This document shows positions 36,344-64,000 of a stretch of DNA of 64,000 nucleotides, piece after piece. The notes beneath the pieces are model-generated. The model saw nothing but the letters and a program-made list of their open reading frames with translations. It had not been told where the DNA came from and searched no databases. The translations under genes and the position numbers were made by a program. The stretch lies in the NCBI GenBank assembly GCA_039809265.1, contig JBDHUR010000001.1, positions 5,914 through 69,913 of the forward strand, in the 5' to 3' direction. The stretch's first letter is position 1, and each line of letters opens with the position of its first letter. This stretch comes from Minisyncoccia bacterium. Its GTDB lineage: Bacteria > Patescibacteriota > Minisyncoccia > Phycocordibacterales > UBA9973.

Positions 36344-36378
36344 CTTGCCATTTGTGTCTCGGATGCTATGATAAAGCT

Positions 36379-36732
36379 ATGAAAACAGATGTATACAAAG
36401 AAAAATTGTTGGAAGAAAAAGGCATACTAGAAGAAGAACTCCGTGGCTTGGGCAGAGTGGTAAACACTGAAACAGGCGACTGGGAAGCGGTGCCAGAGGA
36501 AAGTCTGCCTGAAGCGGACGAGAATGACCTTGCAGACAAAGCTGAAAACTATGAAGAAAGAACAGCTATGCTAAATACGCTTGAAGCAAGGCTTGTAGAT
36601 GTAAACTTGGCACTCCAGAAAATATCCGACGGCAACTACGGCAAATGCGAAGTCTCCGGCGAGATGATAGAAGAAGACCGGCTCATGGCAAACCCAGCTG
36701 CGCGGACATGCAAAGCTCACATGAATTCTTAA
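36379..36732 (+). CDS. DksA/TraR-family protein with degenerate (C-x2-S-x17-C-x2-H) zinc finger
   Basis: Start at MKTDVYKEKLLEE; coiled-coil then 'GKCEVSGEMIEEDRLMANPAARTCKAH'. Confidence 0.65.
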   Translation: MKTDVYKEKLLEEKGILEEELRGLGRVVNTETGDWEAVPEESLPEADENDLADKAENYEERTAMLNTLEARLVDVNLALQKISDGNYGKCEVSGEMIEEDRLMANPAARTCKAHMNS

Positions 36733-49252: not shown

Positions 49253-49654
49253 TTGATTTATGAAATGGAGTATACTATAGGCATGCGAAGGCTTTTATTT
49301 GTATTATTTTTCTTTGTTTTAGTATTTACTACTATCATCGGTCAAGCAATGGCCGCTGGGGCATCTCTTGGCATCCCGATCGGCGGGCTTATAACGACTA
49401 CTAATGTACCACCCAATGTTATCTGCTCAACGGGTATAGGGCCGATAACTATCAAGGTTGCTGGTAAAGGTAGCACTAGCCCATACCTAGCCACCTTTGC
49501 AGGGAATAGAACACCGCAAAATCAAGCCTCATCTGGCCGTTGGTTCCTTGGTCTTTACCAGCCTGGGTTAGGTTGCGTCCAAGAAAATGGCCCTGAGTCT
49601 CATCCATACCCCACACTAAATTGGATAATATATGGGGTTTCTGGAATGAAATAA
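49253..49654 (+). CDS. Small secreted protein
   Basis: 133 aa; signal peptide 'LLFVLFFFVLVFTTIIGQAMA'. Confidence 0.45.
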   Translation: MIYEMEYTIGMRRLLFVLFFFVLVFTTIIGQAMAAGASLGIPIGGLITTTNVPPNVICSTGIGPITIKVAGKGSTSPYLATFAGNRTPQNQASSGRWFLGLYQPGLGCVQENGPESHPYPTLNWIIYGVSGMK

Positions 49655-49656
49655 AC

Positions 49657-50595
49657 ATGCATTCATATTTGCCCAGTAAAAAATTCGTGCAGACATTCCT
49701 TATTCTTGCAGCTGTTTTTATAATCGGCTACTTTTTGTACCACATAGTTTTCAAAAAAGACGGCAAGATACCTTTCATTTCCGGTAATAAAGATTCTTCG
49801 GCTAAACTGGAGACCAAAGAAATAGTACTGCAAGACTTGATGGAAAAGGACACGGACGGAGATGGTATAAAAGACTGGGAGGAAGCACTCTGGGGCACAG
49901 ACCCAGAAAAATCAGACACGGACGGAGATGGTATTTCCGATTTTGACTATATAGAAAAGCGCCGCGAGGAAGTGCGCCAAGCTTCAGGCACTCCCGACCA
50001 AGAACTCTCAGATACCAATGCTACAGACGTTTTTACCAAGGAATTCTTTGCTGCGATAGTGGCGCTGCAACAGTCCGGCCAGCTGAACAGCCAAACACTT
50101 GCCGACCTTTCCAAACAACTTGCGGGTAACATTGGCCAGCAAAAGAGCTTGCCAGACATTTATAGCATCACGGATATAAAAATTGTATCTAACCCATCGC
50201 GAGCAGATATGCAAATATACGGCCAAGCAGTACAAGCCATGAGCAGCTCGTATTTTGCTAAAGGCATAGGCACAGAGCTGGATGTAACTTCAAATGCGCT
50301 AAGCACTGAAGACCCTGCTGAATATGCCAAGATTGCCAGCATTGCAAATGCTTATGCCGACTTTGCTGGAAAACTTGTCGCGCTCCAAACACCCGAAGAT
50401 ATAAGCGTGGATGTATTGAACCTTGCCAATAACATGCAGAAGTCCGCCAAAGCTTTGCAAAATATTTCCGCCATTCCAACCAATGAGCTGATAGGCATCA
50501 TCGGCATAAGCCAGTACAGCACATATAGCGACGACATGGTTAACTCGTTCACAAGTTTATCTAACTACTTGCAAAATAATGGTATACTGCAATAA
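49657..50595 (+). CDS. Membrane-anchored protein with thrombospondin-type-3-like Ca-binding repeats
   Basis: Start at MHSYLPSKK; TM 'FLILAAVFIIGYFLY'; repeats 'DTDGDGIKDWEE','DTDGDGISDFD'. Confidence 0.5.
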   Translation: MHSYLPSKKFVQTFLILAAVFIIGYFLYHIVFKKDGKIPFISGNKDSSAKLETKEIVLQDLMEKDTDGDGIKDWEEALWGTDPEKSDTDGDGISDFDYIEKRREEVRQASGTPDQELSDTNATDVFTKEFFAAIVALQQSGQLNSQTLADLSKQLAGNIGQQKSLPDIYSITDIKIVSNPSRADMQIYGQAVQAMSSSYFAKGIGTELDVTSNALSTEDPAEYAKIASIANAYADFAGKLVALQTPEDISVDVLNLANNMQKSAKALQNISAIPTNELIGIIGISQYSTYSDDMVNSFTSLSNYLQNNGILQ

Positions 50596-50598
50596 GTA

Positions 50599-53325
50599 AT
50601 GCAAAGATACAAAAGAAAATTACATACTGCGCTATCTCTTGTACTAGGAATATCTGTCTTTGCGCAAAGCTTTATTGCAATCATAACACCACAGACAGCA
50701 TACGCGCAAAATGCTAGTGCGAGCGCCTTTGCTGGACTAGGTTCCATCGCCGGAGCAGGAGTTGGCTGTCTTTTGGGTAATGCTTTCTCAGGAACCGGAC
50801 TCTTTAGCTCTGCTGACGGAAACACAACTGCGGGAATGGAAGTACCTACTGGAGACAAGGGGACTAGAGGAAATACTAGCGCACAGAAACAAAAAGAAAA
50901 CTGCCTAGACGCCATAGCTTATGCTGCAGCAAAAGCTTTACTGAAAAAATTTACTCAAGCTACTATAGTCTGGATAAACAGCGGTTTTAAAGGCGAGCCT
51001 CTGTATATAAAAAATCCTGAGTCATTTTTTAAAAGCATAGCGAACGAACAACTGGGTGGAATTATTTCCACATTAAGCAATACAGACAAGGTTCCATTTG
51101 GTAAAGACTTAGCAAGAAGCATTATCCTCTCCACGCAAGCAACTTTTGCAAAAAAGATTGAATACAATTTAAATAAAATAATAAGTCCAGATAGGGTGTA
51201 TCGTTTTCAAGCAGACTTTTCTGCTGGAGGCTGGGACGGCTGGTTAGGAGCGACCCAATTCCCACAAAACAATACTATCGGGGCACACATCGTAACCGCA
51301 GACGAGGTTACATATAAACTCTCTGGTACAGCTAAAGCGCCCGCCGAATATTTACAAGATGAATTAAGTCAAGGTATGGGATTTCTTGGACTAAAGAAGT
51401 GCGTTCAAACTTCAGATGGAAAAACAGCTGCCGACTATAATTACGAAGAATCAACAAATGAATCAATAGAAGACATAGATCCAAAAAAAATCACATGTAC
51501 TCGTTGGGAAACAATTACCCCTGGAACAGCTATTGCAAACCAAATGAACCTAACATTAGGCACATCTCAGCGACAACTAGAACTTGCAGATGAGCTAAAT
51601 GAAAGTATTGCTGGGGTATTTGATGCTCTTTTTAGTCAACTTTTAAACAAAGGTCTAGCCTCTTTGGGCAACAGCTCTTCTTCTAGTGGATATAATGTGG
51701 GTATCTATGGTGGTTATGGAAACAACTCTAATAACTCTAGCCTAAATAGTAACGGTAACCCATACGGGGTAGAGGATCCAGACCAATGGTATAACCAAAA
51801 CCCTACATTTAATATTTGGCATGACCTACAGACTATTATAGACGTTCAGCAAAAAGTCTACGATGATCTTCAAAAAGAAAATTCTGCATTACAAAATCTT
51901 ACAACTGCAATATATGAACTAGACTTTTGTGTGCCTGGACCAAACCCACTATGGTACGATAACGCGCAACAAACAGTAAACGATTTCTTTGGAGATATCC
52001 CTCAAAAGGCTGATGATCTTGGAGATAAGTTACGAAAAGCAAATAAATGGTTTGACCCAGGGGGTATGGTTATGGCTTCTACAGGCTGGGCAAACGAACT
52101 AGGTTTAAACCCACCAGGGTCAAACGGCTGGTCTCAACAAAGAATACAAGAACTGTATGCAAAATTCCTAAAGCAAGCCATAAACTTCTCTGGCGAAGAT
52201 GACGAAACAATGACCTCAGAACATATATCTTCTTTGGGTAGCATTGTGCTTGAACAATATGCTTCAAAAATAAGCTCAAAATACGGCGTATCTGGCTTAC
52301 ACCAAGCTGGAGAATATATGCCGACAGTGGCAGCAAGCTTGCCAAAGCTATACAACAACATACCTAGATACTTAAACCAAATTGACACCAACAACACAAA
52401 GATGGATGACTTTGAAGGTATTATCCGCCAACTTCAATCTATAAGCGTTGCGGTTAAAGATATCCCAGAGGACCCAGACAACCAAACAAGTGCCGACAAA
52501 ACCGCAATAACTACATATCTAAGAATTATAGGTAGCATGGCACAATATATGGCAAGCGAAAGTGTTATACAAACACTGGAAGACGAACTATTTGCTATAA
52601 ATGGCATATACGACATGGTGGCAAATGGAAATAATAGCTTGATAAATCAATGCAAGACAGAACTACGCACAACAAGTCCGACTGGAATAGACTCTTCTAA
52701 TATAAAAGGTTTACGTTTTGCTTACCCTACAGACTTGTTGCCACAGTCTATACAAGATGCATACACAGGCAACCTTGGTGGATATATGACACATCAAATG
52801 TACAAATTCGGTACTTCATATCTTCCGGGAACTTTCTACAAGAGCAATGTAAAGCAGACTAGCTGGCAGTGGCCTTCCCTAGACTCATTAACACACCAGT
52901 ATGATATGAGATCATATTTTACACCAAGCTTTTCTCAAAAATCTGCATTATACGATCAACGAGCGGGTAAATATAACCCAGATATTCCAGGACTATGGGC
53001 ATGGTGCACGGCAGAAGGATTCCAATACACAACAGTAGTAAATAATGCAGTTCAAGCAACAAATCTTGGAATACAATTAGGGCAATCGTACACATTTACG
53101 ATACCAGCGCCGTCCAATAATTCAGGCTTTGGAACAACTCCAGCTCTTTGTAATCCTAGTTTACCTGACAACAATGGTACGGTGATAAAAAACGACCCTA
53201 ATATTAGTGACTTTACATTAAATAGAGCGCTAGACTTTATAGATGTTACAAGTTCTGGTTTGCAAGTTAATAGACCGGACCAAACTAACCTTGCTGGATT
53301 CGAATCATTCCTTGGAATTTATTGA
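50599..53325 (+). CDS. Large (908 aa) secreted protein, first gene of the T4SS-like block
   Basis: Signal peptide 'LSLVLGISVFAQSFIAIITPQTAYAQNASA'; Asn/Gly/Ser-rich; no enzymatic motif. Confidence 0.55.
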   Translation: MQRYKRKLHTALSLVLGISVFAQSFIAIITPQTAYAQNASASAFAGLGSIAGAGVGCLLGNAFSGTGLFSSADGNTTAGMEVPTGDKGTRGNTSAQKQKENCLDAIAYAAAKALLKKFTQATIVWINSGFKGEPLYIKNPESFFKSIANEQLGGIISTLSNTDKVPFGKDLARSIILSTQATFAKKIEYNLNKIISPDRVYRFQADFSAGGWDGWLGATQFPQNNTIGAHIVTADEVTYKLSGTAKAPAEYLQDELSQGMGFLGLKKCVQTSDGKTAADYNYEESTNESIEDIDPKKITCTRWETITPGTAIANQMNLTLGTSQRQLELADELNESIAGVFDALFSQLLNKGLASLGNSSSSSGYNVGIYGGYGNNSNNSSLNSNGNPYGVEDPDQWYNQNPTFNIWHDLQTIIDVQQKVYDDLQKENSALQNLTTAIYELDFCVPGPNPLWYDNAQQTVNDFFGDIPQKADDLGDKLRKANKWFDPGGMVMASTGWANELGLNPPGSNGWSQQRIQELYAKFLKQAINFSGEDDETMTSEHISSLGSIVLEQYASKISSKYGVSGLHQAGEYMPTVAASLPKLYNNIPRYLNQIDTNNTKMDDFEGIIRQLQSISVAVKDIPEDPDNQTSADKTAITTYLRIIGSMAQYMASESVIQTLEDELFAINGIYDMVANGNNSLINQCKTELRTTSPTGIDSSNIKGLRFAYPTDLLPQSIQDAYTGNLGGYMTHQMYKFGTSYLPGTFYKSNVKQTSWQWPSLDSLTHQYDMRSYFTPSFSQKSALYDQRAGKYNPDIPGLWAWCTAEGFQYTTVVNNAVQATNLGIQLGQSYTFTIPAPSNNSGFGTTPALCNPSLPDNNGTVIKNDPNISDFTLNRALDFIDVTSSGLQVNRPDQTNLAGFESFLGIY

Positions 53326-53459
53326 GCCTTGTGAGAATAAAAATATATAAATGACCTAGGTTTTCCACCTCATAGACGAGTGAAGTATGGAAAGTAGTGT
53401 TATAATTGAAACGTATTTCTTGCTTTGATAGGCAGTTTCTGTGTACACGAAATATTTTC

Positions 53460-56400
53460 ATGTTTAAGAAAATCGTACTAATAGCTACAATATTTGGCAT
53501 CTTCGGCGGCTTATTTACACCAGCGTTTTCTGTGAAAGCGTGGGCAGAGGCTGACTTACAAAAAATAACTATTTCTATTAGTGTTAATACCATACAAGAA
53601 GATAAATCTAATGGTAAATACTCAGCAATCATACCTGTAGTTATTAAATCAAATTTTAAAGAATTTGGAGATCACACTATCCATCTAGATATCTACAGCG
53701 CAGCTCCAGGAGGAAAAGCTGAGAAGAAGGTCAGTAAAGAATTCACTCCTCATATAGACAAACCGAAAGATGAGTTTATAGAACAAACATTTCTAACACA
53801 GACAGATGCGGTTTTAGAAAAAGGTTATGGCTATTCGGCTATTGCTTTCATTTCATTACCACAACTAGCTGGGCAGACTACTCCTGGACAATGGATTATT
53901 GGACCGAACGGTATTCCCGTTGTCTCCTTTCCACCCAAGACAACAAATACTTATACTCCACCAATATCCAACACCTCAATTTTTACAATAAAAACCGACG
54001 GCTCTACAAGCATTGCGAATGAAGATAGTAGTGGTACACAAAATACAGCACAAAACGTAACCTCAAACGAACCTTCTGCTCTTCCAGAATGTAATATTCT
54101 TTACTCCAGCACATGGCCTGGTTGTATTGCTCGAGTTATATATTATATTTTTTTTATACCAACATCTTTTGTGTTTGGACTCAGTGGTCAGTTTTTAGAC
54201 TGGGGAACAAGTTTCACTATAGACTCAAATTCATACAAAGGCAGTGCAGCTACTTTCATTGAATCTGGATGGAAAATAACACGTGATATTGCAAACATAC
54301 TATTCATATTCATACTCCTCTGGGTTGGCATAGGCACAATACTAGGCTCACACAGTGTAGATGCAAAGAAGACAATAGGTATGGTGATAATTATAGCTCT
54401 CCTGTTAAATTTCAGCTTGTTTTTTGCCAGAGTAATAATAGACGCATCTAATATTCTGGCTGGGGTTTTTTATAATCAAATAGACGTGCAAGATGAAGGA
54501 TCCAACAACCAATGGGTATTCAGTGATAAAAATGTAAAAAATATTTCCACGGCTATAGTTAGTAAATTTAACCCACAAAAGCTTTTTGCTCAAGCTGGAA
54601 CACTTAAGATAAACACCGGCACAGGTGTAAAGGATGGATCAACAGATGGTGGAACGAATGGTGAACCAGCCCCCGGACAATTCATAATAATCACACTCAT
54701 AATGTCTGTTATAAACTGTATAGGTATTTGGGTATTTTTCTCTGTTGGCTTCCTATTTCTTTCTCGTGTAGCAGGACTTTGGCTTGCTATGATATTTGCA
54801 CCATTGGCATTCATATCATACATACTTCCTTCTAGTTCTGCGGGAGCGCTGGGAGACATGCATCATAGTAAGTGGTGGGGCAACCTTGTTCGCTTGGCAA
54901 TGATGGTGCCAATGTTTATGTTCTTTATGTATCTCATACTCATGTTCATGAATACAAACTTCATAGCAAATGCAATGGGAGACAAAACCACAACACTTGC
55001 GATACTTGGAGTAGTAATACCGTTGCTCATCATTGTAGTACTTCTACAAAGAGCAAGGAAAATAGTGGTAGACTGGTCTGGAGAACTTGGTAAAATGGCA
55101 GCACAGGCAGGCACAGCTGTGGCTGGATTTAGTGTGGGCGCACTGACAGGCGGAGCAGCGATGCTTGGCCGTGGTACTATTGGCAGACTCGCCAACAAAG
55201 CTGCGAGCAGTGAAGAGTTAAAAGATAGAGCAGCAAAAGGAGACAGGATGGCAAAAATGCAACTAAAAAGCGCAGAATTTCTATCAAAATCAAGTTTTGA
55301 TGCTCGCAACACAACGGTTGGAAATAAAGTTTCTCAAGCAACAGGCATGAACCTGAATAAGGGTTTATCTTTTGCCGGTCTGAATACCAAATCCACAGAA
55401 GGTGGCTGGGTAGGACTACAGGCAAAAAAGGCAGAAAAGGAAGCAAGTAGATGGAAAGACAGTTATGACCACCACGCTTATGAACAAGAAGAAGAAAAAG
55501 TAAACGCCGAAAAAGAAAAGCAATCAAAAAACAAAGATATAAAAGAAGATATACAAAACAAAATACGTGTGGAGAAAGCAGCCATAACAACAATGGCAGA
55601 TGGATCTCAAGAAAAAAAGGACGCACAGCGACGTGTTCAAAAACTAACAGAAAGCTTATCTATAGTTGATACAAACATTAGAGCATATGAGAAAGGTGGT
55701 AAAACATATGCCATAAACTCAAACGGAGAATATGTAGATAAAAACGGTAAAGTTGTGACAGACAAGAAAGACGCACACATGGAAGAGTCTTTGGGTATAC
55801 AAAAGATGGAGAAAAACAAAGAGCGCTTAAAAACAGCGAGACAAAAAAACCACGAATCTGTTTTGCGTCGAAAATCTGGTAAACGATATCTGGATGACGA
55901 AAGAGATGAATTGGGTAATATAAAGAAATTTGGTGAAGAAATAACCCCTGGTTTGGAAAAGAAACTGAGAAAAGAAAAAGACGAAAAAAATAAAGAAAAA
56001 AATGAAGCCCTGCAACACAGGCTTGATATAGGAAAAGATATAAATGATGTAAATCAAAAAATGAAAGAAGCGGCAAAAAAAGTAAGCGAGGCACAAAAAA
56101 AGGGAGATAAAGCACTTATAAAATCTACAAGCGACGCACTTAAAGGTTTAGTAGAACAAAGAAAGCAGCTAGAAAAATCTCAAAATGATGCAAAAGAAAA
56201 ATCTGACACCTTAGTAAAAGAATTTAATAAGGTTTCCAACAAGCTTGGTAAAGTAGAAGTAGCTAATCTTAAAACAAACTATAACGGTGTAAGGCAAGTA
56301 CTAAGAGAACTTGGCGAAGGTGCGGCTAGGGGCGCAGCAGTAGGTGCAGCAGTAGGGACTGCTATTCCTGGAGCAGGCACGTTTGCTGGAGCTGGAGTAG

Positions 56401-56594
56401 GAGCAGTCATGGGTGGACTTAGACAAGTACTTGAATACAGTGGTACCACGAACAGAAGTATTGCAAATGGACACATTCCACACTACCATGGTAGTGGCTC
56501 AACATACAGAGAGCCTAGCGGTGGTGGACAAGACACACCATCGGCATCTTCACACAGTGGAGGAGGTGGAGGAGGGGATCATTCACACCACTAA
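53460..56594 (+). CDS. VirB6/TrbL-like polytopic membrane protein with N-terminal secreted domain and long Lys/Glu coiled-coil C-terminal tail
   Basis: Start at MFKKIVLIATIFG; signal peptide, ~230-aa extracytoplasmic domain, 6-7 TM helices between aa ~245 and 560, ~500-aa hydrophilic tail ending Gly/His-rich. Confidence 0.55.
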   Translation: MFKKIVLIATIFGIFGGLFTPAFSVKAWAEADLQKITISISVNTIQEDKSNGKYSAIIPVVIKSNFKEFGDHTIHLDIYSAAPGGKAEKKVSKEFTPHIDKPKDEFIEQTFLTQTDAVLEKGYGYSAIAFISLPQLAGQTTPGQWIIGPNGIPVVSFPPKTTNTYTPPISNTSIFTIKTDGSTSIANEDSSGTQNTAQNVTSNEPSALPECNILYSSTWPGCIARVIYYIFFIPTSFVFGLSGQFLDWGTSFTIDSNSYKGSAATFIESGWKITRDIANILFIFILLWVGIGTILGSHSVDAKKTIGMVIIIALLLNFSLFFARVIIDASNILAGVFYNQIDVQDEGSNNQWVFSDKNVKNISTAIVSKFNPQKLFAQAGTLKINTGTGVKDGSTDGGTNGEPAPGQFIIITLIMSVINCIGIWVFFSVGFLFLSRVAGLWLAMIFAPLAFISYILPSSSAGALGDMHHSKWWGNLVRLAMMVPMFMFFMYLILMFMNTNFIANAMGDKTTTLAILGVVIPLLIIVVLLQRARKIVVDWSGELGKMAAQAGTAVAGFSVGALTGGAAMLGRGTIGRLANKAASSEELKDRAAKGDRMAKMQLKSAEFLSKSSFDARNTTVGNKVSQATGMNLNKGLSFAGLNTKSTEGGWVGLQAKKAEKEASRWKDSYDHHAYEQEEEKVNAEKEKQSKNKDIKEDIQNKIRVEKAAITTMADGSQEKKDAQRRVQKLTESLSIVDTNIRAYEKGGKTYAINSNGEYVDKNGKVVTDKKDAHMEESLGIQKMEKNKERLKTARQKNHESVLRRKSGKRYLDDERDELGNIKKFGEEITPGLEKKLRKEKDEKNKEKNEALQHRLDIGKDINDVNQKMKEAAKKVSEAQKKGDKALIKSTSDALKGLVEQRKQLEKSQNDAKEKSDTLVKEFNKVSNKLGKVEVANLKTNYNGVRQVLRELGEGAARGAAVGAAVGTAIPGAGTFAGAGVGAVMGGLRQVLEYSGTTNRSIANGHIPHYHGSGSTYREPSGGGQDTPSASSHSGGGGGGDHSHH

Positions 56595-56636
56595 TTCAAC
56601 ACTTGAAAAATGAAAAGTAGGGTATACTAAGAACAT

Positions 56637-57476
56637 ATGGACAATCAAGAAATTATTCAAAAAATACAAGACCTATATGCTAGCGTTCCTGGTGCGCTAC
56701 AAAAAGCTATAGTTTCTTCAGATTATCAAAACAAAATTGTAGATATAGGCAAAAACAACAAACTAACAGTTGCACAGCTTGGGGACTTGGAACTTGTCAC
56801 AACATTTGTCATGCTCGGAGCAACTTCACCTAATAATTATAAAAGTGAGATTGCCGAAAAGCTTGGAATACAGGACGAAGCCGTAGTGAATAAAATAGTG
56901 GATGATGTAAACACACAAATATTTTCTACTATTCGTAATGAGCTAAAGGAAATAAATACACCAATAGAAGAAGAGGATGATGATAGCGAGACTTTTTGGC
57001 ATCACAGCGAGGAAGAGATGGATGCTGCCGGGTTTCAAGCAAACAACACGGCTGAAACAAACACCACATCCATACAGACTGTAAGCGCTAAAGACCAAGC
57101 GGAGCTAGAGAAATCTGGAATAGAGATAGAGAAAACACGCCCAACTTCCGAGGAATATGTGAAGGCAACAGTACTACCAAACTCTGGACTACCAGCATCT
57201 GGACTTCAGACACGCGAAAATATCCTAAATGGCATAGAGCACCCTACGGAAAGCAAGCCTTCATTTATAGACAAGCAATTCTCTGGTGTTTATACCATGC
57301 CAACAAAAGAGACAACATATACACCAAAACCTGTGGCGCCTGCGCAGACAGGCGCCACAGGTAAAGCAGCTGGCCCCGCTCCAATACCTGCACCAAAAGC
57401 GCCATCGACAGACTTGCCAACAAATACAGCAGGCGAGCCACCAGCAAAAATTGATCCTTATAGGGAAATAATATAA
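56637..57476 (+). CDS. Hypothetical acidic, Pro-rich cytoplasmic protein within the T4SS-like block
   Basis: 279 aa, no TM. Confidence 0.45.
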   Translation: MDNQEIIQKIQDLYASVPGALQKAIVSSDYQNKIVDIGKNNKLTVAQLGDLELVTTFVMLGATSPNNYKSEIAEKLGIQDEAVVNKIVDDVNTQIFSTIRNELKEINTPIEEEDDDSETFWHHSEEEMDAAGFQANNTAETNTTSIQTVSAKDQAELEKSGIEIEKTRPTSEEYVKATVLPNSGLPASGLQTRENILNGIEHPTESKPSFIDKQFSGVYTMPTKETTYTPKPVAPAQTGATGKAAGPAPIPAPKAPSTDLPTNTAGEPPAKIDPYREII

Positions 57477-57493
57477 TAGCTGAAAGCTGCCTT

Positions 57494-57910
57494 ATGCAAT
57501 TCAAAGTCCCACAATTTATAGATGTTGAAGACAAAATTTTTGGACCTTTTACGTTCCGACAATTTTTGTATCTGGCTGGAGGAGCGGGGATATGCTTTTT
57601 ACTTTACAAAACTCTGCCCCTCGTTGTAGCTATAATTATAATGTTGCCGGTCATAGCTCTTTCTCTTGCTTTGACTTTCTATAGAGTAAACGAAAAACCT
57701 TTCATATATATACTTGAGGCATATATAGGCTACCTTGGCAAAAACAAGCTGTACGTTTGGAAAAAAGCTCCGCCGGAAAAGAAAAGCACAGACAAGACAG
57801 ACGCTGCACAGAAACCGGCAGCAGAGAGTTACGTGCCAAAGCTTTCTGAAAGCAAGCTAAAAGACATATCTTGGAGTTTGGATGTGCTGGATGTAAATAA
57901 AGGCAATTAA
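57494..57910 (+). CDS. Small two-TM protein, VirB3/PrgI-like
   Basis: 138 aa; 'FTFRQFLYLAGGAGICFLLY' resembles the VirB3 'L(T)RP..FLGVP' region; lies upstream of virB4 as in most T4SS loci. Confidence 0.45.
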   Translation: MQFKVPQFIDVEDKIFGPFTFRQFLYLAGGAGICFLLYKTLPLVVAIIIMLPVIALSLALTFYRVNEKPFIYILEAYIGYLGKNKLYVWKKAPPEKKSTDKTDAAQKPAAESYVPKLSESKLKDISWSLDVLDVNKGN

Positions 57911-57939
57911 CAATTAAAAAACAAAATTGGTGATACAAT

Positions 57940-58605
57940 GTGCCATATATGGCTTTGAATGCTAGAGCAACTCAAGATTTTGTACCGATACAAGAGGTCA
58001 GAGACGGCGTCATAATACTAAAAGACGGCGGGGTACGAGCTGTTTTGCTTGCTTCTTCTATAAACCTCTCTCTCAAGTCCGCGGATGAACAGCAGGCTAC
58101 CCTTTTACAGTTTCAGACTTTTTTGAACTCGTTAGACTTTTCTACACAAATATCTGTCCAGTCCCGAAGGCTAGACATACGTCCATACTTAAACTTGCTG
58201 GAAAACAGGATGAAAGAACAGCTTGAGCCGTTGCTTAAAATACAAACAAGGGAGTACATAGAGTTTATAAGGTCTTTTACAGATAGTGTAAATATAATGA
58301 CAAAAAGCTTTTTCATAACCGTACCGTACACCCAACCTGCACTTTCTGCCGGCGGAGCAGTTAGCGGACTGAAGAATTTGATCCCTGGGCAAAAAAGCCA
58401 GCCGGATAAAAAAAGCACTGAGCAGCTGGACTTTGAAGAGAAAAGGAGTCAACTGGACCAGCGCATAGGGGTAATACAGCAGGGTTTGTCTCGTGTAGGT
58501 ATCCGCACAGTGGAGCTTGGGACAGAAGAGATAGTGGAGCTATTTTACAAAATTTTCAACCCAGGAGAAGTTACACAATCTATAAAACTAGATACGCAAA
58601 GCTAA
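57940..58605 (+). CDS. VirB4/TrbE N-terminal domain encoded as a separate ORF
   Basis: 221 aa; 'VRDGVIILKDGGVRAVLLASSINLSLKSADEQQ' matches the VirB4 N-terminal 'LEDGSIMSIARIDGVAFELEE' region; 'FFITVPY' matches VirB4 'LTLVVYP'. Confidence 0.6.
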   Translation: MPYMALNARATQDFVPIQEVRDGVIILKDGGVRAVLLASSINLSLKSADEQQATLLQFQTFLNSLDFSTQISVQSRRLDIRPYLNLLENRMKEQLEPLLKIQTREYIEFIRSFTDSVNIMTKSFFITVPYTQPALSAGGAVSGLKNLIPGQKSQPDKKSTEQLDFEEKRSQLDQRIGVIQQGLSRVGIRTVELGTEEIVELFYKIFNPGEVTQSIKLDTQS

Positions 58606-58609
58606 CAAC

Positions 58610-60445
58610 ATGGCAATTTTAGACTTCTTAAAAAAGAAAACAGACGCTGGAAATAATAAAAGGGCGGTTTTGCCTGTTTTACCTACAGAAATATACGAAG
58701 CGGCAACATTAGAGTTCAAAGATATTATAGCGCCTTCGGCGCTAAAGATAGAGCCGAAGGCGCTAAACCTTGGAGACAAAATGGCACGCACTTTCTTTGT
58801 CATATCTTATCCAAGGTATTTGTCAGACAACTGGTTCTCTCCGATCATAAATTTGGACAAGATATTTGATGTATCCATCTTCATACACCCCATAGAAACA
58901 GCCAAAATTTTGCGAGACTTCCAGAAAAAGGTAGCGGAAGTGCAAAGCCAGATAAGCATCCGCGAAAGCAAAGGTCTGGTGCGAGACCCGATGCTGGACA
59001 CTGCATACCAAGACCTAGAATCTTTGCGAGACAACCTACAGCAAGCGCAAGAGAAGATATTTGATGTTGGGCTTTATATTACAGTTTACGGCAATAACGA
59101 AAACGACTTGTTCAAGATAGAAAACGAGATAAAGTCTATATTGGAATCAAAGCTGGTATACTTGAAACCTGCCCTTTTCCAGCAAGAGGAAGGCTTTGAC
59201 TCTGTGATACCCATAGGCAATGACATACTGAACGTGCACCAAAAACTAAACTCCGAACCGCTTTCATCCATCTTCCCATTTGTTTCTTTCGACCTAACTT
59301 CCGACAAAGGAATACTTTACGGGGTGAATAGGCACAACTCTTCACTTGTTATATTTGACAGATTTTCTCTTGAAAACTACAACTCTATCATCTTTGCAAA
59401 GTCAGGCTCTGGAAAATCTTATGCTACGAAGCTGGAAATACTTCGTACACTCATGTTTGACACAGAAGTTATTGTCATAGACCCGGAAAGAGAGTATGAG
59501 TATTTAGCTGAAGCAGTGGGTGGAAGATACTTCAACATATCACTGTCTTCGCAACATCACATAAACCCTTTTGACTTGCCGGTGCCGCGAGAAGACGAAA
59601 CCCCGGCAGATGTGCTTCGTTCTAATGTCATAAACCTCGTTGGCCTATTCCGTATCATGCTTGGCGGATTGACCCCAGAAGAAGACTCTATAGTAGACAG
59701 AGCAATAACAGAAACTTACGCAATCAAAGACATAACTGCAGACTCCGACTTCTCCAACATTGAACCGCCGCTTTTGACAGACTTTGAGATGGTGCTTGCT
59801 GGCATGGATGGATCAGAGTCTCTGATACAACGCCTAACCAAGTTCACTAGAGGCTCTTGGTCTACATTTCTAAACCAGCCATCAAACGTAGACATAAATA
59901 AAAAATTCGTAGTGTTCTCCGTGAGAGACATGGAAGATGAGCTGAAGCCGGTAGCAATGTACATAGTCACGCACTTTATCTGGAACGCCGTGAGAAAGAC
60001 ACTGAAAAAACGCCTCTTAGTGGTGGATGAAGCTTGGTGGATGATGAAGTCAGACGACACAGCCTCTTTCCTTTACTCTATAGCCAAGCGAGGCAGAAAG
60101 TACTACTTGGGACTTTGCACCATAACCCAAGACGTGGGAGACTTCATGCGCAGTCCATACGGCGTACCCATCGTTACAAACAGCTCCCTACAACTCCTAT
60201 TGAAACAGTCTCCGTCTTCTATAGACCTGCTGCAAAAAACCTTTAATCTTACAGACGAAGAAAAATATCTGCTACTGGAATCCAATGTCGGGGAAGGGAT
60301 ATTCTTTGCCGGACTAAAGCATGTTGCTATAAAGATAATATCTTCATATACAGAAGACCAAATAATAACTTCCGACCCATCGCAGGTGTTAGCAATAAAG
60401 AAATCAAAGGATGAACTAGAAGCAGCGGAACGCGGTGTAAAGTAA
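58610..60445 (+). CDS. VirB4/TraC/CagE-family T4SS ATPase (middle plus C-terminal ATPase domain)
   Basis: 611 aa; 'FFVISYPRYLSDNWFSPII' (VirB4 'IYSFREYP' region), Walker A 'AKSGSGKS', Walker B 'LLVVDEAWWMM', downstream 'LGLCTITQD' motif. Confidence 0.8.
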   Translation: MAILDFLKKKTDAGNNKRAVLPVLPTEIYEAATLEFKDIIAPSALKIEPKALNLGDKMARTFFVISYPRYLSDNWFSPIINLDKIFDVSIFIHPIETAKILRDFQKKVAEVQSQISIRESKGLVRDPMLDTAYQDLESLRDNLQQAQEKIFDVGLYITVYGNNENDLFKIENEIKSILESKLVYLKPALFQQEEGFDSVIPIGNDILNVHQKLNSEPLSSIFPFVSFDLTSDKGILYGVNRHNSSLVIFDRFSLENYNSIIFAKSGSGKSYATKLEILRTLMFDTEVIVIDPEREYEYLAEAVGGRYFNISLSSQHHINPFDLPVPREDETPADVLRSNVINLVGLFRIMLGGLTPEEDSIVDRAITETYAIKDITADSDFSNIEPPLLTDFEMVLAGMDGSESLIQRLTKFTRGSWSTFLNQPSNVDINKKFVVFSVRDMEDELKPVAMYIVTHFIWNAVRKTLKKRLLVVDEAWWMMKSDDTASFLYSIAKRGRKYYLGLCTITQDVGDFMRSPYGVPIVTNSSLQLLLKQSPSSIDLLQKTFNLTDEEKYLLLESNVGEGIFFAGLKHVAIKIISSYTEDQIITSDPSQVLAIKKSKDELEAAERGVK

Positions 60446-60491
60446 CAGTTTTCCCTCGTTTTTTTGCTCAAAGTATTTTATACTTAGATAG

Positions 60492-61529
60492 ATGAAGATA
60501 AGCATATTTGCAAACTCGTTTAGAAAGTTTGCCTTAAAAGCGGTGTTGGCTTTTGCTTTTTTGTCTATACTTATTTCACCAGCCAACGCTTTGGCTCAAT
60601 CTTTGCTTGATTCTTCTTTTACTGCCAACGATGTATCGGTGGAACTTTCACCGGAAATACCGGCACCGAACCAGACTTTGACGATATCTTTAACAAGCTA
60701 CACGGTAGACCTAGATAAAGCGCGAATGACTTGGACACAAGACGGCAAGATAAAAAACAGTGGGACCGGCATAAAAGAGTTCAGTGTGCAAGTGGGTGAC
60801 GTGGGCTCAACAACAACCATAGATGTATCTATAGTTATAAATGGATTGAATAGATTTGACAAAAGGATAGTTGTCAGCCCCTCAGAAGTAGACATGTTGT
60901 GGGAAGCGGTAGACTCTTATGTTCCACCGTTCTATGAAGGAAAAGCACTGCCTTCATCCGAAGCTGTAATAAAAGTTGTGGCAATACCCAACAACAAGAC
61001 AAACAATACCGACATTCAAACCGGCAACTTTGTTTACAATTGGAAAAAGAACTTTGCAGCAGACCAAAGCGCATCTGGCTTTAGTAAAAATAGCTACGTT
61101 TTCAAGGCAAGCTACCTGAATGCAGAAGAAACAATATCTGCAAATGCAGCCTCAGTATCTGGCAACAGTGGCGGGGAAGGAAGCGTAACCATAGTGACAG
61201 GTAAACCTAAAATAATATTCTATGAAGACGCAGCAGGCATCGGCCCTGTATATGCCAGTGCCTTGAACCAAGGCTATAGACTGACCAACAACGAAGCCAC
61301 GGTCGTAGCCGTGCCGTATTTCTTCTCTGTGAGCAATCCTGCCGCCAAAGACTTGCTTTACAGATGGAGCATAAACAACAACAACATAGACACGCCTTCA
61401 CCGGCAAATACACTTGTCATAAAAAGCGCCGGGGAAACAGGACAAGCAAAAGTTGGCTTGCACTTGGAGTCCGCAAGTAAACTTTTCCAATCCATAGACC
61501 AGACATTTTTTGTAGACATAATAAAGTAA
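60492..61529 (+). CDS. Secreted protein (345 aa) in the T4SS-like block
   Basis: Signal peptide 'ALKAVLAFAFLSILISPANALA'; beta-rich composition. Confidence 0.5.
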   Translation: MKISIFANSFRKFALKAVLAFAFLSILISPANALAQSLLDSSFTANDVSVELSPEIPAPNQTLTISLTSYTVDLDKARMTWTQDGKIKNSGTGIKEFSVQVGDVGSTTTIDVSIVINGLNRFDKRIVVSPSEVDMLWEAVDSYVPPFYEGKALPSSEAVIKVVAIPNNKTNNTDIQTGNFVYNWKKNFAADQSASGFSKNSYVFKASYLNAEETISANAASVSGNSGGEGSVTIVTGKPKIIFYEDAAGIGPVYASALNQGYRLTNNEATVVAVPYFFSVSNPAAKDLLYRWSINNNNIDTPSPANTLVIKSAGETGQAKVGLHLESASKLFQSIDQTFFVDIIK

Positions 61530-61535
61530 AGCAGT

Positions 61536-63365
61536 ATGACTTTCAAAAAGATAATGAAAAATAAGGCGATGATAGCAATGAGGATTTTTATTGTTGCATT
61601 CATCGCATCCTTGCCATTTATCTCTCGTGCAGTATCTGGAACAGAAATGCAGACCAACGAACTGACAGACACTTCTGTACTAATAACCGGACGCATATTA
61701 AACCCAGACAACCAAAGCGTAAAAATAGGCACAGTAGAGCAAAACAACCCGCAAGCTTCATATGTATATACCAACCCGTTTACCTTGCTGGATGATGCCA
61801 GTGTGCCGCCAATAGAGGGTAGGACAGGAAATACTACAGGGTATGGGAACACAAGTGTGGGGGAAAGAACTGGTAAAAACAATACTACAGGATATGGTAA
61901 TACAAGCGTGGGAGAAAAAGGTGTTTACAATAACACTTCAGCTTATGGAAACACTGGTGTTGGAGAAAAAGGCTCCGCATACAACAGTGTGGTGTACCAA
62001 ACCATCTCTGGCCTTGCACCAAATACTACATACTGCTCTGTGGTAGTAGATGCCAGCGATCCTTCCAATACACCTATATATGGCAGTGAGATATGCTACA
62101 CCACACTTGCAACAGGCGCTTCATATAAAAATGGGGAACTGACAAGTGTGGTATTAGACACACAGTCAATGACAGATACTAGTGCAACGATAAAGTTTAT
62201 GGTAAATCCAGACGGAAAAGCACTCGGACTTAGCCTAAAATATGGCGTTGGCAAAAAGGACTTTACAGACAGCGACTATACCAAAGACATAGGGGAATTC
62301 TTCCGCACTGCGACGACCACTTCCAACAGCCTGCCTGCAACAGCAGAGATCAAAAATCTAGAGAAAGATACAACTTACTATTATGAAGTTTACAACACAG
62401 ACACAAAAGAAGTTTACCACGACAACTTATTCACAACAGCTGCTTCTGCCGGCACAGTTATAAACCAAAACAGCAGTAATACCACAACAACAACTACATG
62501 CGTACCAGGGGAGTACTGCTTGCTTGCTCCGCTTCCGGGACTTTCAAAGATAAATGTACAAACGACAGGTATAGGCGGATACCTTGCAATAATATTCAAG
62601 ATAGGTATAGGCCTTGCTGGAGTATTGGCTGTGGTGATGCTGGTAGTTGGAGGCATACAGTACATGTCTACAGATGCGTTTTCTGAAAAAGCAGATGGCA
62701 AGTCTAGAATGATGAATGCAATCATTGGGCTTCTGCTTGTCCTTGGTGCATGGGTTATACTAAATACACTAAATCCAAATTTGCTCATATTCAATCTGGA
62801 TTTACAGAAGGTTTCTATAACAGTTGACCCTTCTCTCATAGATAGTGATGAAGCAGAGACACAACCACCAACTGGTGCTAACTACACATCATATCCATAT
62901 AAAAATCGAGACAAAATAGACGATGTTTTTCCAACACCTAAAACATCTGATATGCTTGGCACACTCAAAACTTTAAATGTCGATGTAAGTGGTTCAAACA
63001 GTTCAAAACCCATCTGTGATACAGTTGGACAAACAGGCTGCACAGCATTGGCTGGCATACCTTCAAAGGTTACTGTTGGGCTGCAAAAAATTAGGACAAA
63101 GTGTCCTAATTGTGAACTTACAATAACTGGCGGAACAGAATTTTGGCTTCATAAATCACATGGTCCTGGAAAAGATAAGATTGACTTAAGAAACAACTCC
63201 CGGGCCTCAAACTTTGTAAAATATGTGACTAGCGGTAAAAAAATAGGGCAGATAACTGGGTGGGGTGTACTGTATGTTACAGATGGAATAGAGTTTGTTG
63301 ATGAGGGAAATCATTACCATGTCTGGGGTTGGAATAATGACCATGCTTCAAGTTATAATAAATAA
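61536..63365 (+). CDS. Composite surface protein: signal peptide, GYGNTSVGE repeats, FN3-like modules, VirB2/TrbC-like double-TM hairpin, C-terminal LAS-metallopeptidase-like domain
   Basis: 609 aa; 'GGYLAIIFKIGIGLAGVLAVVMLVVGGIQYM...GKSRMMNAIIGLLLVLGAWVIL' hydrophobic hairpin; 'HKSHGPGKDKIDL' and 'EGNHYHV' resemble H-x(n)-D / H-x-H zinc motifs. Confidence 0.5.
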   Translation: MTFKKIMKNKAMIAMRIFIVAFIASLPFISRAVSGTEMQTNELTDTSVLITGRILNPDNQSVKIGTVEQNNPQASYVYTNPFTLLDDASVPPIEGRTGNTTGYGNTSVGERTGKNNTTGYGNTSVGEKGVYNNTSAYGNTGVGEKGSAYNSVVYQTISGLAPNTTYCSVVVDASDPSNTPIYGSEICYTTLATGASYKNGELTSVVLDTQSMTDTSATIKFMVNPDGKALGLSLKYGVGKKDFTDSDYTKDIGEFFRTATTTSNSLPATAEIKNLEKDTTYYYEVYNTDTKEVYHDNLFTTAASAGTVINQNSSNTTTTTTCVPGEYCLLAPLPGLSKINVQTTGIGGYLAIIFKIGIGLAGVLAVVMLVVGGIQYMSTDAFSEKADGKSRMMNAIIGLLLVLGAWVILNTLNPNLLIFNLDLQKVSITVDPSLIDSDEAETQPPTGANYTSYPYKNRDKIDDVFPTPKTSDMLGTLKTLNVDVSGSNSSKPICDTVGQTGCTALAGIPSKVTVGLQKIRTKCPNCELTITGGTEFWLHKSHGPGKDKIDLRNNSRASNFVKYVTSGKKIGQITGWGVLYVTDGIEFVDEGNHYHVWGWNNDHASSYNK

Positions 63366-63368
63366 CAG

Positions 63369-64000
63369 ATGAAAAAAGCAATTAAGACATTTCTAATAAT
63401 AGTACTGGTCGGGGCAGCGGTGTTTGGCGGCTTGTGGTACTTGAAGAGCAGAAATGGAGCAGTAAACGAGAACGGCACTACGAACGGAGGAGGTATAACA
63501 CTTCGCGACTTTTTCCCATTTGGATCAGATACTAAAGTTACGGACGAAGAGCCTCTTACTCCGTCAACAGAAACAAAAGATGAGGAACCAGCGGCATCTG
63601 TCGCAAAAGAACAAAACCTTGTACAGATATCCGGTAACCCTGTAGCGGGGTTTGGTTTCGCCATGGTAAATGTAGCACCAGACGGAAATGCTGTGGCAAA
63701 AGAATATGTGACAGTAAAAGCTGGTATTACTTTCACCAAAGATTTGGCTCGCGACAGCAAAGATAACCAAGTGAAGGAACTACAAAAACTTTTCAACCAG
63801 TGTGAAGAACTTCAGCTAGCAGTCTCTGGTGTCGGCTCAGTAGGGAAAGAGACTACGAGCTTTGATGAAAAGACAGAAAATTCTCTGAAGATTTTCCAAA
63901 CAATGTTTAGAAACATAGACCCTGCAACAAACGCTCCACTTGATCCTTCAGGCAAGGTAGATGCACAAACTAGAGCGAAACTGAATACTCCTTTTGACTG
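63369..64000 (+). CDS. Membrane-anchored protein with PG_binding_1-like peptidoglycan-binding domain (gene runs off the window end)
   Basis: N-terminal TM 'FLIIVLVGAAVFGGLWYL'; 'FDEKTENSLKIFQTMFRNIDPATNAPLDPSGKVDAQTRAKL' matches the PG-binding pattern. Confidence 0.5.
   Translation, partial: MKKAIKTFLIIVLVGAAVFGGLWYLKSRNGAVNENGTTNGGGITLRDFFPFGSDTKVTDEEPLTPSTETKDEEPAASVAKEQNLVQISGNPVAGFGFAMVNVAPDGNAVAKEYVTVKAGITFTKDLARDSKDNQVKELQKLFNQCEELQLAVSGVGSVGKETTSFDEKTENSLKIFQTMFRNIDPATNAPLDPSGKVDAQTRAKLNTPFD

Follow-up and report, generated by a model that had tools for sequence, protein, structure and literature searches.

Chromosomal type IV secretion systems (T4SS) of the Patescibacteria (CPR), which are ultrasmall and depend on hosts, stem from the conjugation machinery of monoderm bacteria (MPF-FATA), and they have already been published, by Wang et al. 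(2023, Cell; PMC10633639), by Quinonero-Coronel et al. (2025; PMC12102498), and in a 2025 FEMS review (PMC12857230). Quinonero-Coronel et al. found the Patescibacteria VirB4 clade nested within MPF-FATA. The systems of this clade have TrsD, PrgI, VirB6, and PF18895 pilins and no relaxase, and in Paceibacteria they lie near KsgA and dnaA. The same study recognized TrsD in 2,272 CPR proteins and reported VirD4 homologues distant from virB4 in many CPR genomes. In a Saccharibacterium, Southlakia epibionticum ML1, Wang et al. showed that a homologous locus by dnaA (SEML1_0006-0019) is essential for epibiotic growth. Gram-positive MPF-FATA systems (pCF10 PrgH-I-J-K-L; pGO1 TrsC-D-E; CTn2 CD1110) reside on plasmids or ICEs that also have a relaxase, T4CP, and oriT; they have no VirB2-type pilins, and their hydrolases are of the SLT/CHAP kind. 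The Mycoplasma T4SS (pilin-like Mbov_0395, VirB4 Mbov_0397) is also encoded on mobile ICEs.

We analyzed a stretch of 64,000 nucleotides, referred to here as the window, from a Paceibacteria-class CPR bacterium. We put the probability that its T4SS-like gene cluster is an ordinary member of the chromosomal T4SS described across the Patescibacteria at roughly 90%. The window contains no new system, and an initial annotation made from the letters alone overstated the novelty of one already described for the whole phylum. Its suggestion of a role beyond classical conjugation agrees with the published view. Only one feature of the locus is undescribed: its pilin carries a probable wall-cutting domain as a fusion.

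A colinear cluster beside replication-origin genes

Nine plus-strand ORFs, 0 to 80 nucleotides apart, fill the window from position 50599 to 64000 (Table 1). The initial annotation had rightly described them as codirectional and tightly spaced, but it counted ten. Housekeeping genes flank the cluster. Its GC content (0.39 to 0.43) is the same as that of the remainder of the window, which also holds genes for PNPase, RNase Y, and ComM.

The expected synteny was found, as all cluster genes are identically ordered in up to 80 Patescibacteria species, far beyond chance. Most of the ~80 loci are colinear in the order UvrD-KsgA-...-VirB6-PrgI-TrsD-VirB4-...-pilin-g9, followed by yidC/rnpA/dnaA/dnaN. 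One colinear order in ~80 species indicates vertical inheritance beside replication-origin genes and not a mobile element.

Table 1. Features of the T4SS locus and the recombinase in the same window
Feature	Position	Strand	Size or part of protein	Basis or remark
Tyrosine recombinase, XerC/D-like	30100-31095	-		20 kb upstream of cluster; sole recombinase
u4, acidic exported protein with bacterial TSP3 (Ca-binding) repeat	49621..50595	+	324 aa	Pfam TSP3_bac 1e-6
g1, secreted lineage-specific protein	50599..53325	+	908 aa	Signal peptide read from sequence
g2, extended VirB6/TrbL-like polytopic protein	53406..56594	+	1062 aa	TM segments, homologue TrbL matches, structure model
g3, acidic soluble protein	56637..57476	+	279 aa	pI 4.5
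g4, PrgI/VirB3 family	57494..57910	+	138 aa, 2 TM segments	Pfam PF12666
g5, TrsD-like	57940..58605	+	221 aa	NCBIfam VirB4/TrsD profiles; probable start 57949 (218 aa)
g6, VirB4 ATPase (remaining N-terminal domain and P-loop domain)	58610..60445	+	611 aa	NCBIfam, Pfam, PDB matches
g6 Walker A, AKSGSGKS	59396-59419	+	aa 263
g6 Walker B, DEAW	60026-60037	+	aa 473
g7, secreted beta-rich protein	60492..61529	+	345 aa	Signal peptide
g8, composite pilin	61536..63365	+	609 aa	PF18895 T4SS_pilin
g8 FN3-like domain		+	aa 206-294	
g8 VirB2-like two-helix hairpin	62550-62792	+	aa 339-419
g8 LAS-metallopeptidase-like domain	62973..63362	+	~aa 480-609
g9, N-terminal membrane anchor, PG_binding_1-like module, conserved C-terminal TolB-like beta-propeller-type domain	63366..64000	+		Cut by window end

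A VirB4 ATPase with a separate TrsD-like protein

The initial annotation had called a VirB4 ATPase spread over two ORFs. The call was correct for g6, which has both Walker motifs of a VirB4-family ATPase and matched NCBIfam NF045971 (conju_CD1110) over profile positions 182 to 733 of 752 (7.8e-113; 378 bits, cutoff 325). Its best PDB match was VirB4 4AG5 (3.3e-41), followed by TrwK (4e-6), and its top Pfam match was P-loop_TraG (5.5e-26). It also matched NF045975 (VirB4_plasma) at 1.7e-78, under the equivalog cutoff. There were at least ~600 pattern matches to this VirB4, at least 585 of them confirmed by tblastn in Patescibacteria genomes. These nearest relatives, all from Patescibacteria and 77 to 87% identical, together with synteny indicate that g6 belongs to the monophyletic, vertically inherited CPR VirB4 clade. 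Such identities, seen in 80 Patescibacteria species, contradict the initial statement that every component is highly diverged. Median identity was 81.6% for VirB4 and 65.0% for DnaA, and VirB4 was higher in 48 of 48 loci, a comparison biased because the loci were picked by VirB4 similarity.

The upstream protein, g5, matched positions 101 to 220 of NF045975 (5.1e-9, under the equivalog cutoff), positions 2 to 119 of the CD1110 VirB4 profile (1.6e-5), and TrsD NF041427 (3.1e-6). Its precomputed Pfam annotation is PF26593 (TraC-like). Judged from its sequence, g5 is the free-standing counterpart of the N-terminal region of VirB4. In 75 loci the two are separate; their relative frame takes all three values (30, 23, and 22 loci) and their spacers vary, which rules out a frameshift as the cause of the split. 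Therefore, the two ORFs of the initial annotation do belong to VirB4 and TrsD, but as a conserved arrangement and not a disruption. This two-ORF TrsD and VirB4 arrangement is ancient. Across species, g5 is 63% and g6 82% identical, level with or above DnaA.

PrgI and VirB6-like membrane partners

The two-TM protein g4 had been read as VirB3/PrgI-like, and it matched Pfam PF12666 (PrgI) above the cutoff (4.5e-11; 43.6 bits, cutoff 27). A small membrane partner of this type is therefore present by virB4, one gene upstream of g5/g6. It was found in 75 of 80 loci, with a median identity of 53%.

Translation of g2 probably begins at the ATG at 53460, which yields 1044 aa, a length also called in a near-identical locus (L081). 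The protein has a signal peptide, an ectodomain, a core of ~7 TM segments (aa 220 to 620), a long Lys/Glu-rich coiled-coil tail, and a Gly-zipper. In a Pfam profile search, g2 itself did not match TrbL. However, eight of 45 g2 homologues matched PF04610 TrbL (best, 1.5e-6), and one matched TrbL_4. An AF2 model of the core had a pLDDT of 81.6, and its top six Foldseek PDB matches were all R388 TrwI/VirB6 (E values of 9e-3 to 0.2; probabilities of 1.00 to 0.89), with low TM-scores of 0.23 to 0.43. By transitivity through its homologues and the model, g2 is probably a VirB6/TrbL channel protein, which agrees indirectly with the initial call.

Sequence and profile searches of the cluster proteins did not find a VirB8-like bitopic NTF2-fold protein, and profile searches gave no match to VirB9 or VirB10. 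A cryptic VirB8 homologue among g1, g3, g7, g9, and u4 is possible.

A pilin with a LAS-metallopeptidase-like domain

The VirB2-like hairpin of the initial annotation was borne out. g8 matched PF18895 T4SS_pilin (9.9e-9; 35.6 bits, cutoff 26.6) and Pur_ac_phosph_N (1.3e-5), and its hairpin matched NF045849 (Mbov_0395 pilin-like) at 1.3e-6, under the equivalog cutoff. Therefore, both a TrsD and a PF18895 VirB2-like pilin are associated with virB4, as in the Patescibacteria-clade T4SS. From its N terminus, g8 consists of a signal peptide, three 17-aa TGYGNTSVGE-type repeats, the FN3-like domain, the hairpin, and the LAS-metallopeptidase-like domain. Among 70 loci with a g8 match, the hairpin is the only part kept in all, and the C-terminal domain is found in ~11. 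The LAS-type domain family comprises 628 clusters, nearly always after a T4SS pilin.

In this domain, C494, C502, C523, H539, H542, D550, H593, and H595 are invariant, and a GGTE-W motif and E590 are nearly so. All 41 sequences share H542-x7-D550 and H593-x-H595. These residues resemble the canonical LAS Zn-ligand motif, H-x(3-6)-D plus a distal His (H-x-H), with a spacing one residue longer, and the domain fits the LAS fold. The His...Asp...His-x-His pattern is shared with the LAS metallopeptidases MepA, VanX, VanY/LdcB, and the Hedgehog N-domain. The g8 domain differs from these in having no sequence-level match to them, in its H-x7-D spacing, in an extra invariant H539 and two Cys pairs, and in its fusion to a membrane pilin hairpin. 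It is a putative peptidoglycan peptidase that probably cuts the cell wall.

Exported and accessory proteins

Four cluster proteins are lineage-specific envelope proteins. g1 has a conserved core (~aa 100 to 440) and a variable C-terminal half; tblastn matches in 46 loci invariably lie between u4 and g2. It had no match in Pfam, NCBIfam, or the PDB. g3, which lies between g2 and g4 in the 33 loci where it was detected, has a conserved N-terminal 100 aa and a variable Pro/Ala-rich tail, with no family match in Pfam or NCBIfam. g7 is conserved over its full length in 78 of 80 loci, always directly 3' of virB4. It had no PDB sequence match, and some orthologues weakly matched the Ig-type families BiPBP_C, Ig_3, and PKD (best, 1e-3); g7 probably consists of tandem Ig-like domains.

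g9 is present in 68 loci as the final gene ahead of jag-yidC-rnpA and dnaA-dnaN, and it is 535 aa long in L081. The PG-binding domain that had been annotated in it scored below the cutoff in the window protein (PG_binding_1, 7e-4; 20.2 bits, cutoff 23), but six of 31 orthologues do match (best, 5.4e-11). An orthologue profile also matched TolB 7MX5 (2.7e-4). u4, whose pI is 4.4 and whose N-terminal part has a hydrophobic segment, lies directly 5' of g1 in 36 related loci, just outside the gene set of the initial annotation. It may be an accessory component, but synteny by itself cannot establish this, as KsgA and UvrD are just as syntenic.

Comparison with the closest known systems

The locus is essentially the same as the Paceibacteria arrangement of the Patescibacteria-clade T4SS (PMC12102498). 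Both have VirB4 with TrsD, PrgI/VirB3, a VirB6 (probable here), and a PF18895 pilin, both lack a relaxase and T4CP nearby, and both are chromosomal, near KsgA, rnpA, dnaA, and dnaN. However, one gene encodes the pilin here, not an array. That study does not describe the LAS-like domain on the pilin, nor does it list the conserved exported proteins g1, g7, g9, and u4 among the fixed parts of the Paceibacteria locus.

The S. epibionticum ML1 locus (PMC10633639) shares the order of VirB6-like protein, PrgI, small protein, VirB4 (612 aa), large exported proteins, and wall hydrolase. It also has PF18895 pilins, has no relaxase or T4CP, and lies beside dnaA, dnaN, and recF. Pilins come as a six-gene array in the saccharibacterial locus, which also encodes two VirB6-like proteins, an NTF2-like protein resembling VirB8, and a lysozyme/glucosaminidase as a separate protein, whereas our locus has one pilin with its own LAS-type domain, no recognizable VirB8-like protein, and the PG-binding/TolB-like g9.

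With the Gram-positive MPF-FATA systems, the locus shares the order VirB6 (PrgH; VirB6-like here), VirB3 (PrgI), VirB4 (PrgJ), and wall hydrolase. pGO1 likewise has TrsD as a separate protein encoded ahead of VirB4, and g6 scores over the cutoff of the CD1110 family. In contrast to those systems, this one is chromosomal, fixed, and relaxase-less and has a pilin and a LAS-type domain. The likeness to the Mycoplasma ICE T4SS is that the g8 hairpin, g5, and g6 match NF045849/NF045975 below equivalog cutoffs.

Direction of transport and alternative origins

One alternative concerns only the direction of transport and does not conflict with the identity that we favor. The machine might carry macromolecules of the host, nucleic acids or others, into an auxotrophic epibiont, like ComB of H. 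pylori or archaeal Ced. The absence of a relaxase and T4CP nearby suits this idea. The T4SS has been proposed as a candidate nucleotide-acquisition route because comEC is dispensable and the T4SS is essential (PMC11665869), and host-RNA feeding has been reported with tubular structures that are possibly T4SS pili (bioRxiv 10.64898/2026.06.21.733656). PNPase, RNase Y, and ComM are also encoded in the window, by co-location only. g6 weakly and partially matched CedB (1.2e-8) and CedD (4.7e-5). However, these are partial P-loop matches and are far under the cutoffs (CedB, 34 bits, cutoff 700; CedD, 22 bits, cutoff 600), and CedA, ComB7-10, and a DNA-binding component were not found in the cluster. 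Also, no CPR T4SS has been tied to import by experiment. We consider import possible but rather unlikely.

A conjugative element of the classical kind, either an ICE or an integrated plasmid, with its relaxase and coupling protein beyond the window, is very improbable. The fit of VirB4 to the CD1110 conjugative-transposon family, the VirD4-like genes elsewhere in many CPR genomes (PMC12102498), and a tyrosine recombinase in the window, where the initial annotation had seen no integrase, all speak for it. However, the recombinase is XerC/D-like and 20 kb distant. Instead of variable presence, foreign composition, and a border integrase, we found the same KsgA-to-yidC/dnaA site in ~80 species, uniform composition, and housekeeping neighbors. 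As initially noted, no relaxase, coupling protein (VirD4/TcpA), or VirB11 was found in any ORF scanned. The scan, which for the relaxase and coupling protein began at position 740 of the window, reached 9.4 kb beyond the window and thus took in DNA past 64 kb; no relaxase lay between -50 kb and +9 kb. Relaxases are present in merely 103 of 3,035 CPR genomes. A chromosomal, origin-near site with no relaxase or T4CP nearby is what the Patescibacteria-clade T4SS has.

A decaying remnant, in which a frameshift had broken VirB4 into ORFs of 221 and 611 aa and left the machine dead, might be suspected, since g5 and g6 are 4 nucleotides apart and jointly span one VirB4 profile. However, the conservation data refute it: the split occurs in 75 species in all three relative frames with varied spacers, both proteins are as conserved as DnaA or more so, and TrsD is a recognized separate protein in pGO1-type systems and CPR genomes (PMC12102498). 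Likewise refuted is an ATPase of the FtsK/HerA or VirD4 clade, and hence no T4SS at all, because matches to DUF87 (HerA central domain; 5.7e-8) and AAA_10 are outdone by P-loop_TraG, NCBIfam gives VirB4 families alone (one above its trusted cutoff), PDB matches are to VirB4 and TrwK alone, and PrgI, TrsD, pilin, and VirB6-like genes adjoin it.

Proposed mechanism and significance

For the chromosomal Patescibacteria T4SS that we favor, we offer a tentative mechanism, which as a whole has somewhat less than an even chance of being right. Hexamers of VirB4/TrsD would dock onto PrgI and VirB6 at the cytoplasmic membrane and drive the building of a conduit based on pilin, or of a short pilus. The FN3-like and LAS-type metallopeptidase ectodomains of the pilin, together with g9 and its PG-binding/TolB-like parts, would open or grip the wall, either the bacterium's own or the host's, and secreted g1, g7, and u4 might form or tip the extracellular part. 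The outcome would be contact-dependent exchange of macromolecules with the host cell that carries the epibiont, by effector export or import of host material. Conjugative DNA transfer would not be part of this role.

A more specific proposal, which we think improbable, is that the Paceibacteria T4SS pilin is an enzyme carrier. Its VirB2-type hairpin, fused to a previously unmodelled LAS-type metallopeptidase, would place wall cutting on the conduit itself, so that a relaxase-less machine encoded near the origin could breach host or own peptidoglycan to move macromolecules. If true, this pilin-hydrolase architecture would be undescribed for any T4SS.

Few machines are known to be indispensable to the epibiotic life of this very large radiation, most of it uncultured, and the Patescibacteria T4SS is one of them. 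This locus is a clean Paceibacteria example, fixed beside replication-origin genes. Its conserved, unannotated exported proteins and its LAS-like-fused pilin offer starting points for structural and genetic studies of the way CPR bacteria tap their hosts.

A nine-gene cluster with a VirB4 ATPase in two ORFs

We counted nine plus-strand ORFs, g1 to g9, between window positions 50599 and 64000, rather than the ten of the initial annotation. Its description of a co-directional, tightly spaced array held (spacing, 0 to 80 nt). The array starts upstream of g1, with UvrD, KsgA, a 133-aa ORF, and u4, an exported TSP3-repeat protein (see the table). Signal peptides in g1 and g7 agree with both having been called secreted, and the pI of g3 fits an acidic protein. 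A promoter scan was uninformative, with fewer promoter-like sites than expected from shuffling, and a terminator scan found no convincing plus-strand terminator within the cluster. The variable tail of g3 and the 5' end of virB4 contain palindromic sequences.

Features of the window and of locus L081, a near-identical locus that extends past the window end, with median amino acid identity to the window proteins across 48 loci holding all markers
Feature	Position (strand)	Product (aa)	Description	Median identity (%)
FG-GAP protein	26899-28230 (-)	443	FG-GAP repeats; Por_Secre_tail (1e-10)	
Tyrosine recombinase	30100-31095 (-)		Phage_integrase (1.1e-40); N-terminal SAM-like domain	
DksA/TraR type	36352-36732		zinc-finger protein	
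ComM/YifB	36757-38310		Mg-chelatase-like	
Wall hydrolase	38345-39556		LysM plus Peptidase_M23	
Coiled-coil protein	39688-41625 (+)	645	highly charged, coiled-coil-rich	
Coiled-coil protein	41667-45284 (+)	1205	same; short mid-protein Gly/Ala-rich hydrophobic stretch	
UvrD	46498 (+)			
KsgA	48445 (+)			
u4	49621-50595 (+)	324	exported, TSP3 repeats	
g1	(+)	908	signal peptide	29
g2	53406-56594 (+), likely ATG at 53460	1062 from 53406	~7 TM segments; long Lys/Glu-rich tail	32
g3	(+)	279	pI 4.5	
Repeat in g3 tail	57329-57362		perfect 14-bp inverted repeat, 6-nt loop	
g4 (PrgI)	(+)	138	two TM segments	53.5
g5	(+)	221		63.5
g6 (VirB4)	58610-60445 (+)	611	AKSGSGKS at aa 263; DEAW at aa 473	81.6
virB4 5' palindromes	58728-58765		two adjacent, 17 nt each, GC-rich	
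g7	(+)	345	signal peptide	35
g8	(+)	609		~39
Repeats in g8	61830-61982		three tandem 51-nt repeats	
g9	(+), runs off window end	535 in L081		~39
YidC	past window end			52.1
DnaA	L081 15634-16983			65.0
DnaN	past window end			54.6

The g6 protein matched P-loop_TraG in Pfam (5.5e-26) and, in NCBIfam, NF045971, the CD1110 family of VirB4-like conjugal transfer ATPases (7.8e-113; 378 bits against a trusted cutoff of 325), over profile positions 182 to 733 of 752. Against PDB sequences it matched only R388 TrwK/VirB4 and 4AG5, the C-terminal domain of a VirB4 (3.3e-41). With P-loop_TraG as the best Pfam match and VirB4 matches in NCBIfam and PDB, we rejected the reading of g6 as an FtsK/HerA ATPase. 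By these matches, g6 is a VirB4, as originally called.

The g5 protein matched the same CD1110 profile at positions 2 to 119 (1.6e-5), a mycoplasma VirB4 profile at positions 101 to 220 (5.1e-9), and TrsD (3.1e-6), and newer Pfam annotation makes it TraC-like; a profile search against PDB sequences gave nothing meaningful. These alignments identify g5 as the N-terminal part absent from g6, and the proposal of a VirB4 in two ORFs stands. A frameshifted VirB4 was considered and rejected: in 75 related species the g5 and g6 counterparts are likewise two ORFs, and each of the three relative frames occurs among them. Judged by that conservation, the split is not damage.

Other machine components

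The assignment of g4 to VirB3/PrgI is borne out by PF12666 (43.6 bits; cutoff, 27) and its two TM segments. The g2 protein had no direct family match, and a full-length-family profile gave only coiled-coil noise against PDB sequences. However, among 45 homologues of its TM core, 8 matched Pfam TrbL and one matched TrbL_4. When the core was modeled with AF2 (pLDDT, 81.6), the top six Foldseek matches of the model were all TrwI/VirB6 chains from the R388 T4SS (probability 0.89 to 1.00, with low TM-scores); all others were at 0.28 or below. Homologues and model together suggest that g2 is probably VirB6-like, so the VirB6/TrbL-like call survives by this route rather than by a direct match.

The peptidoglycan-binding domain ascribed to g9 fell below threshold in g9 itself (PG_binding_1, 20.2 bits against 23, in the complete L081 protein) but was found in orthologues (up to 5.4e-11). 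A conserved C-terminal domain of g9 weakly resembles a TolB propeller (2.7e-4). Profile searches found no family match for g1, g3, or g7, and those of g1 and g7 against PDB sequences gave nothing meaningful; g7 orthologues had weak Ig-type matches only.

The pilin g8 carries a LAS-like C-terminal domain

The VirB2-like hairpin reported in g8 is a T4SS_pilin (PF18895, 35.6 bits; cutoff, 26.6), and g8 also matches the Mbov_0395 pilin-like family. A g8 profile search against PDB sequences gave nothing meaningful. We sought additional pilin genes across the window and found none; a weak candidate at 36568-36627 was rejected because it belongs to the DksA/TraR-type protein. Only the hairpin is conserved in all related loci, and the N-terminal FN3-like region and C-terminal domain vary. 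The tandem repeats in g8 encode TGYGNTSVGE-type units of the N-terminal ectodomain and may give rise to differences in length.

The C-terminal domain (about aa 480 to 609) has no Pfam model, yet it defines a family. A word-index homologue search with it returned no matches. Searched exhaustively with HMMER, the family came to 628 representative clusters (E<=1e-3), in all of which the domain is C-terminal. Among 41 sampled members, 30 had T4SS_pilin and 4 had TrbC. Eight residues are invariant (C494, C502, C523, H539, H542, D550, H593, and H595), and GGTE-W and E590 are nearly so.

The AF2 model of this domain was confident (pLDDT, 89.1; pTM, 0.85), and fold searches with it had a mixed outcome. 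Foldseek gave no significant match, with ShhN and MepA among the top ones. Fold-search scores were 5.8 and 5.7 for ShhN, 5.1 for MepA, 5.0 for Hedgehog, 4.7 for VanX, 4.0 for LdcB, 3.9 for VanXY, 3.7 for Zn DD-peptidase, 3.6 for VanYB, and 3.5 for LysB4. Therefore, the LAS-peptidase-like call is supported at the fold level. The candidate ligand pattern, H-x7-D ... H-x-H, is non-canonical but plausible. We found no mention of a pilin-peptidase fusion in the CPR (Patescibacteria) T4SS paper (PMC12102498), and the fusion and the domain family may be new.

The cluster is fixed beside replication-origin genes

The window is ordinary chromosome, with genes for RecJ, PGK, TIM, L10, NusA, PPase, trigger factor, ClpP, RNase Y, four tRNAs, CCA enzyme, PNPase, ComM, a LysM-M23 peptidase, UvrD, and KsgA. 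The DksA/TraR-type, ComM/YifB, and wall hydrolase genes lie 11 to 14 kb upstream of the cluster, and the two coiled-coil proteins, without Pfam match, are encoded directly ahead of the UvrD-KsgA-T4SS array. The Por_Secre_tail of the FG-GAP protein is a C-terminal sorting domain of the type IX secretion system. A monoderm CPR genome should lack that system, and the domain is unexpected there.

Relatives of g6 number in the thousands, and the best (84 to 100% identical) carry the names Paceibacterota, Nomurabacteria, or Parcubacteria. When one genome per species was scanned, g6 matched at least about 600 stretches, at least 585 of which encode confirmed relatives; the 80 best among the matches listed were all from Patescibacteria MAGs. 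When every window protein was compared with these 80 loci by tblastn, UvrD, KsgA, u4, g1, g2, (g3), and g4 to g8 were colinear, confirming that the cluster is conserved together. DNA past the window end was read from L081 (11834-18322), fetched via its identical g8 protein: next to g9 lie jag, yidC, and rnpA (minus strand), with dnaA and dnaN beyond them, an order kept in more than 50 loci. This places the presumed replication origin about 4 kb past the window end.

Cluster GC content equals that of the remaining window. Given this, the colinear order, and the origin-side continuation, the cluster is vertically inherited at a fixed position and is not a mobile element. As the initial annotation had noted, no relaxase, T4CP (VirD4), or VirB11 domain was present in any ORF scanned. 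An integrative and conjugative element was therefore rejected, given the fixed position, uniform GC, and lack of relaxase and T4CP in those ORFs. The statement that no integrase is visible was contradicted by the tyrosine recombinase, which is probably a housekeeping XerC/D.

VirB4 identity exceeded DnaA identity in 48 of 48 loci, a difference that may be partly selection bias because the loci were selected by VirB4 similarity, which favors VirB4. The view that every component is highly diverged applies relative to classical T4SSs but not within the lineage, as the VirB4 median indicates.

Relation to the published system and proposed role

The feature is real, its T4SS interpretation is essentially right, and this kind of system has been described. 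Quinonero-Coronel et al. 2025 (PMC12102498) found VirB4 in 2,417 of 3,035 CPR genomes, nearly all in one clade nested in MPF-FATA, near TrsD, PrgI/VirB3, VirB6, and PF18895 pilins. Relaxases were almost absent, T4CPs were seldom adjacent, and Paceibacteria neighbors were KsgA, RnpA, DnaA, and DnaN. In Southlakia epibionticum, epibiotic growth requires the homologous locus, SEML1_0006-0019, which adjoins dnaA and runs VirB6-like, PrgI, small protein, VirB4, large proteins, and lysozyme (Wang et al. 2023, PMC10633639). Thus, the initial finding was a correct rediscovery. Reviews (PMC11665869 and PMC12857230) list effector delivery or nutrient/nucleic-acid acquisition as proposed functions only, and a preprint (bioRxiv 10.64898/2026.06.21.733656) describes structures that may be T4SS pili where an RNA-feeding CPR strain meets its host.

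What we observed at this locus is a parts list at a fixed chromosomal position without nearby conjugation-specific genes. In T4SSs, VirB4 docks on VirB3 and VirB6, and pilin extraction is VirB4 dependent. By analogy, g5 and g6 would power assembly of a g8-based conduit via g2 and g4, peptidoglycan would be handled by the LAS-like domain and g9, and g1, g7, and u4 would be extracellular parts. The interest of the locus lies in the pilin-LAS fusion and in the role of the system, whose most likely purpose would be contact-dependent exchange with a host cell, in one direction or the other.
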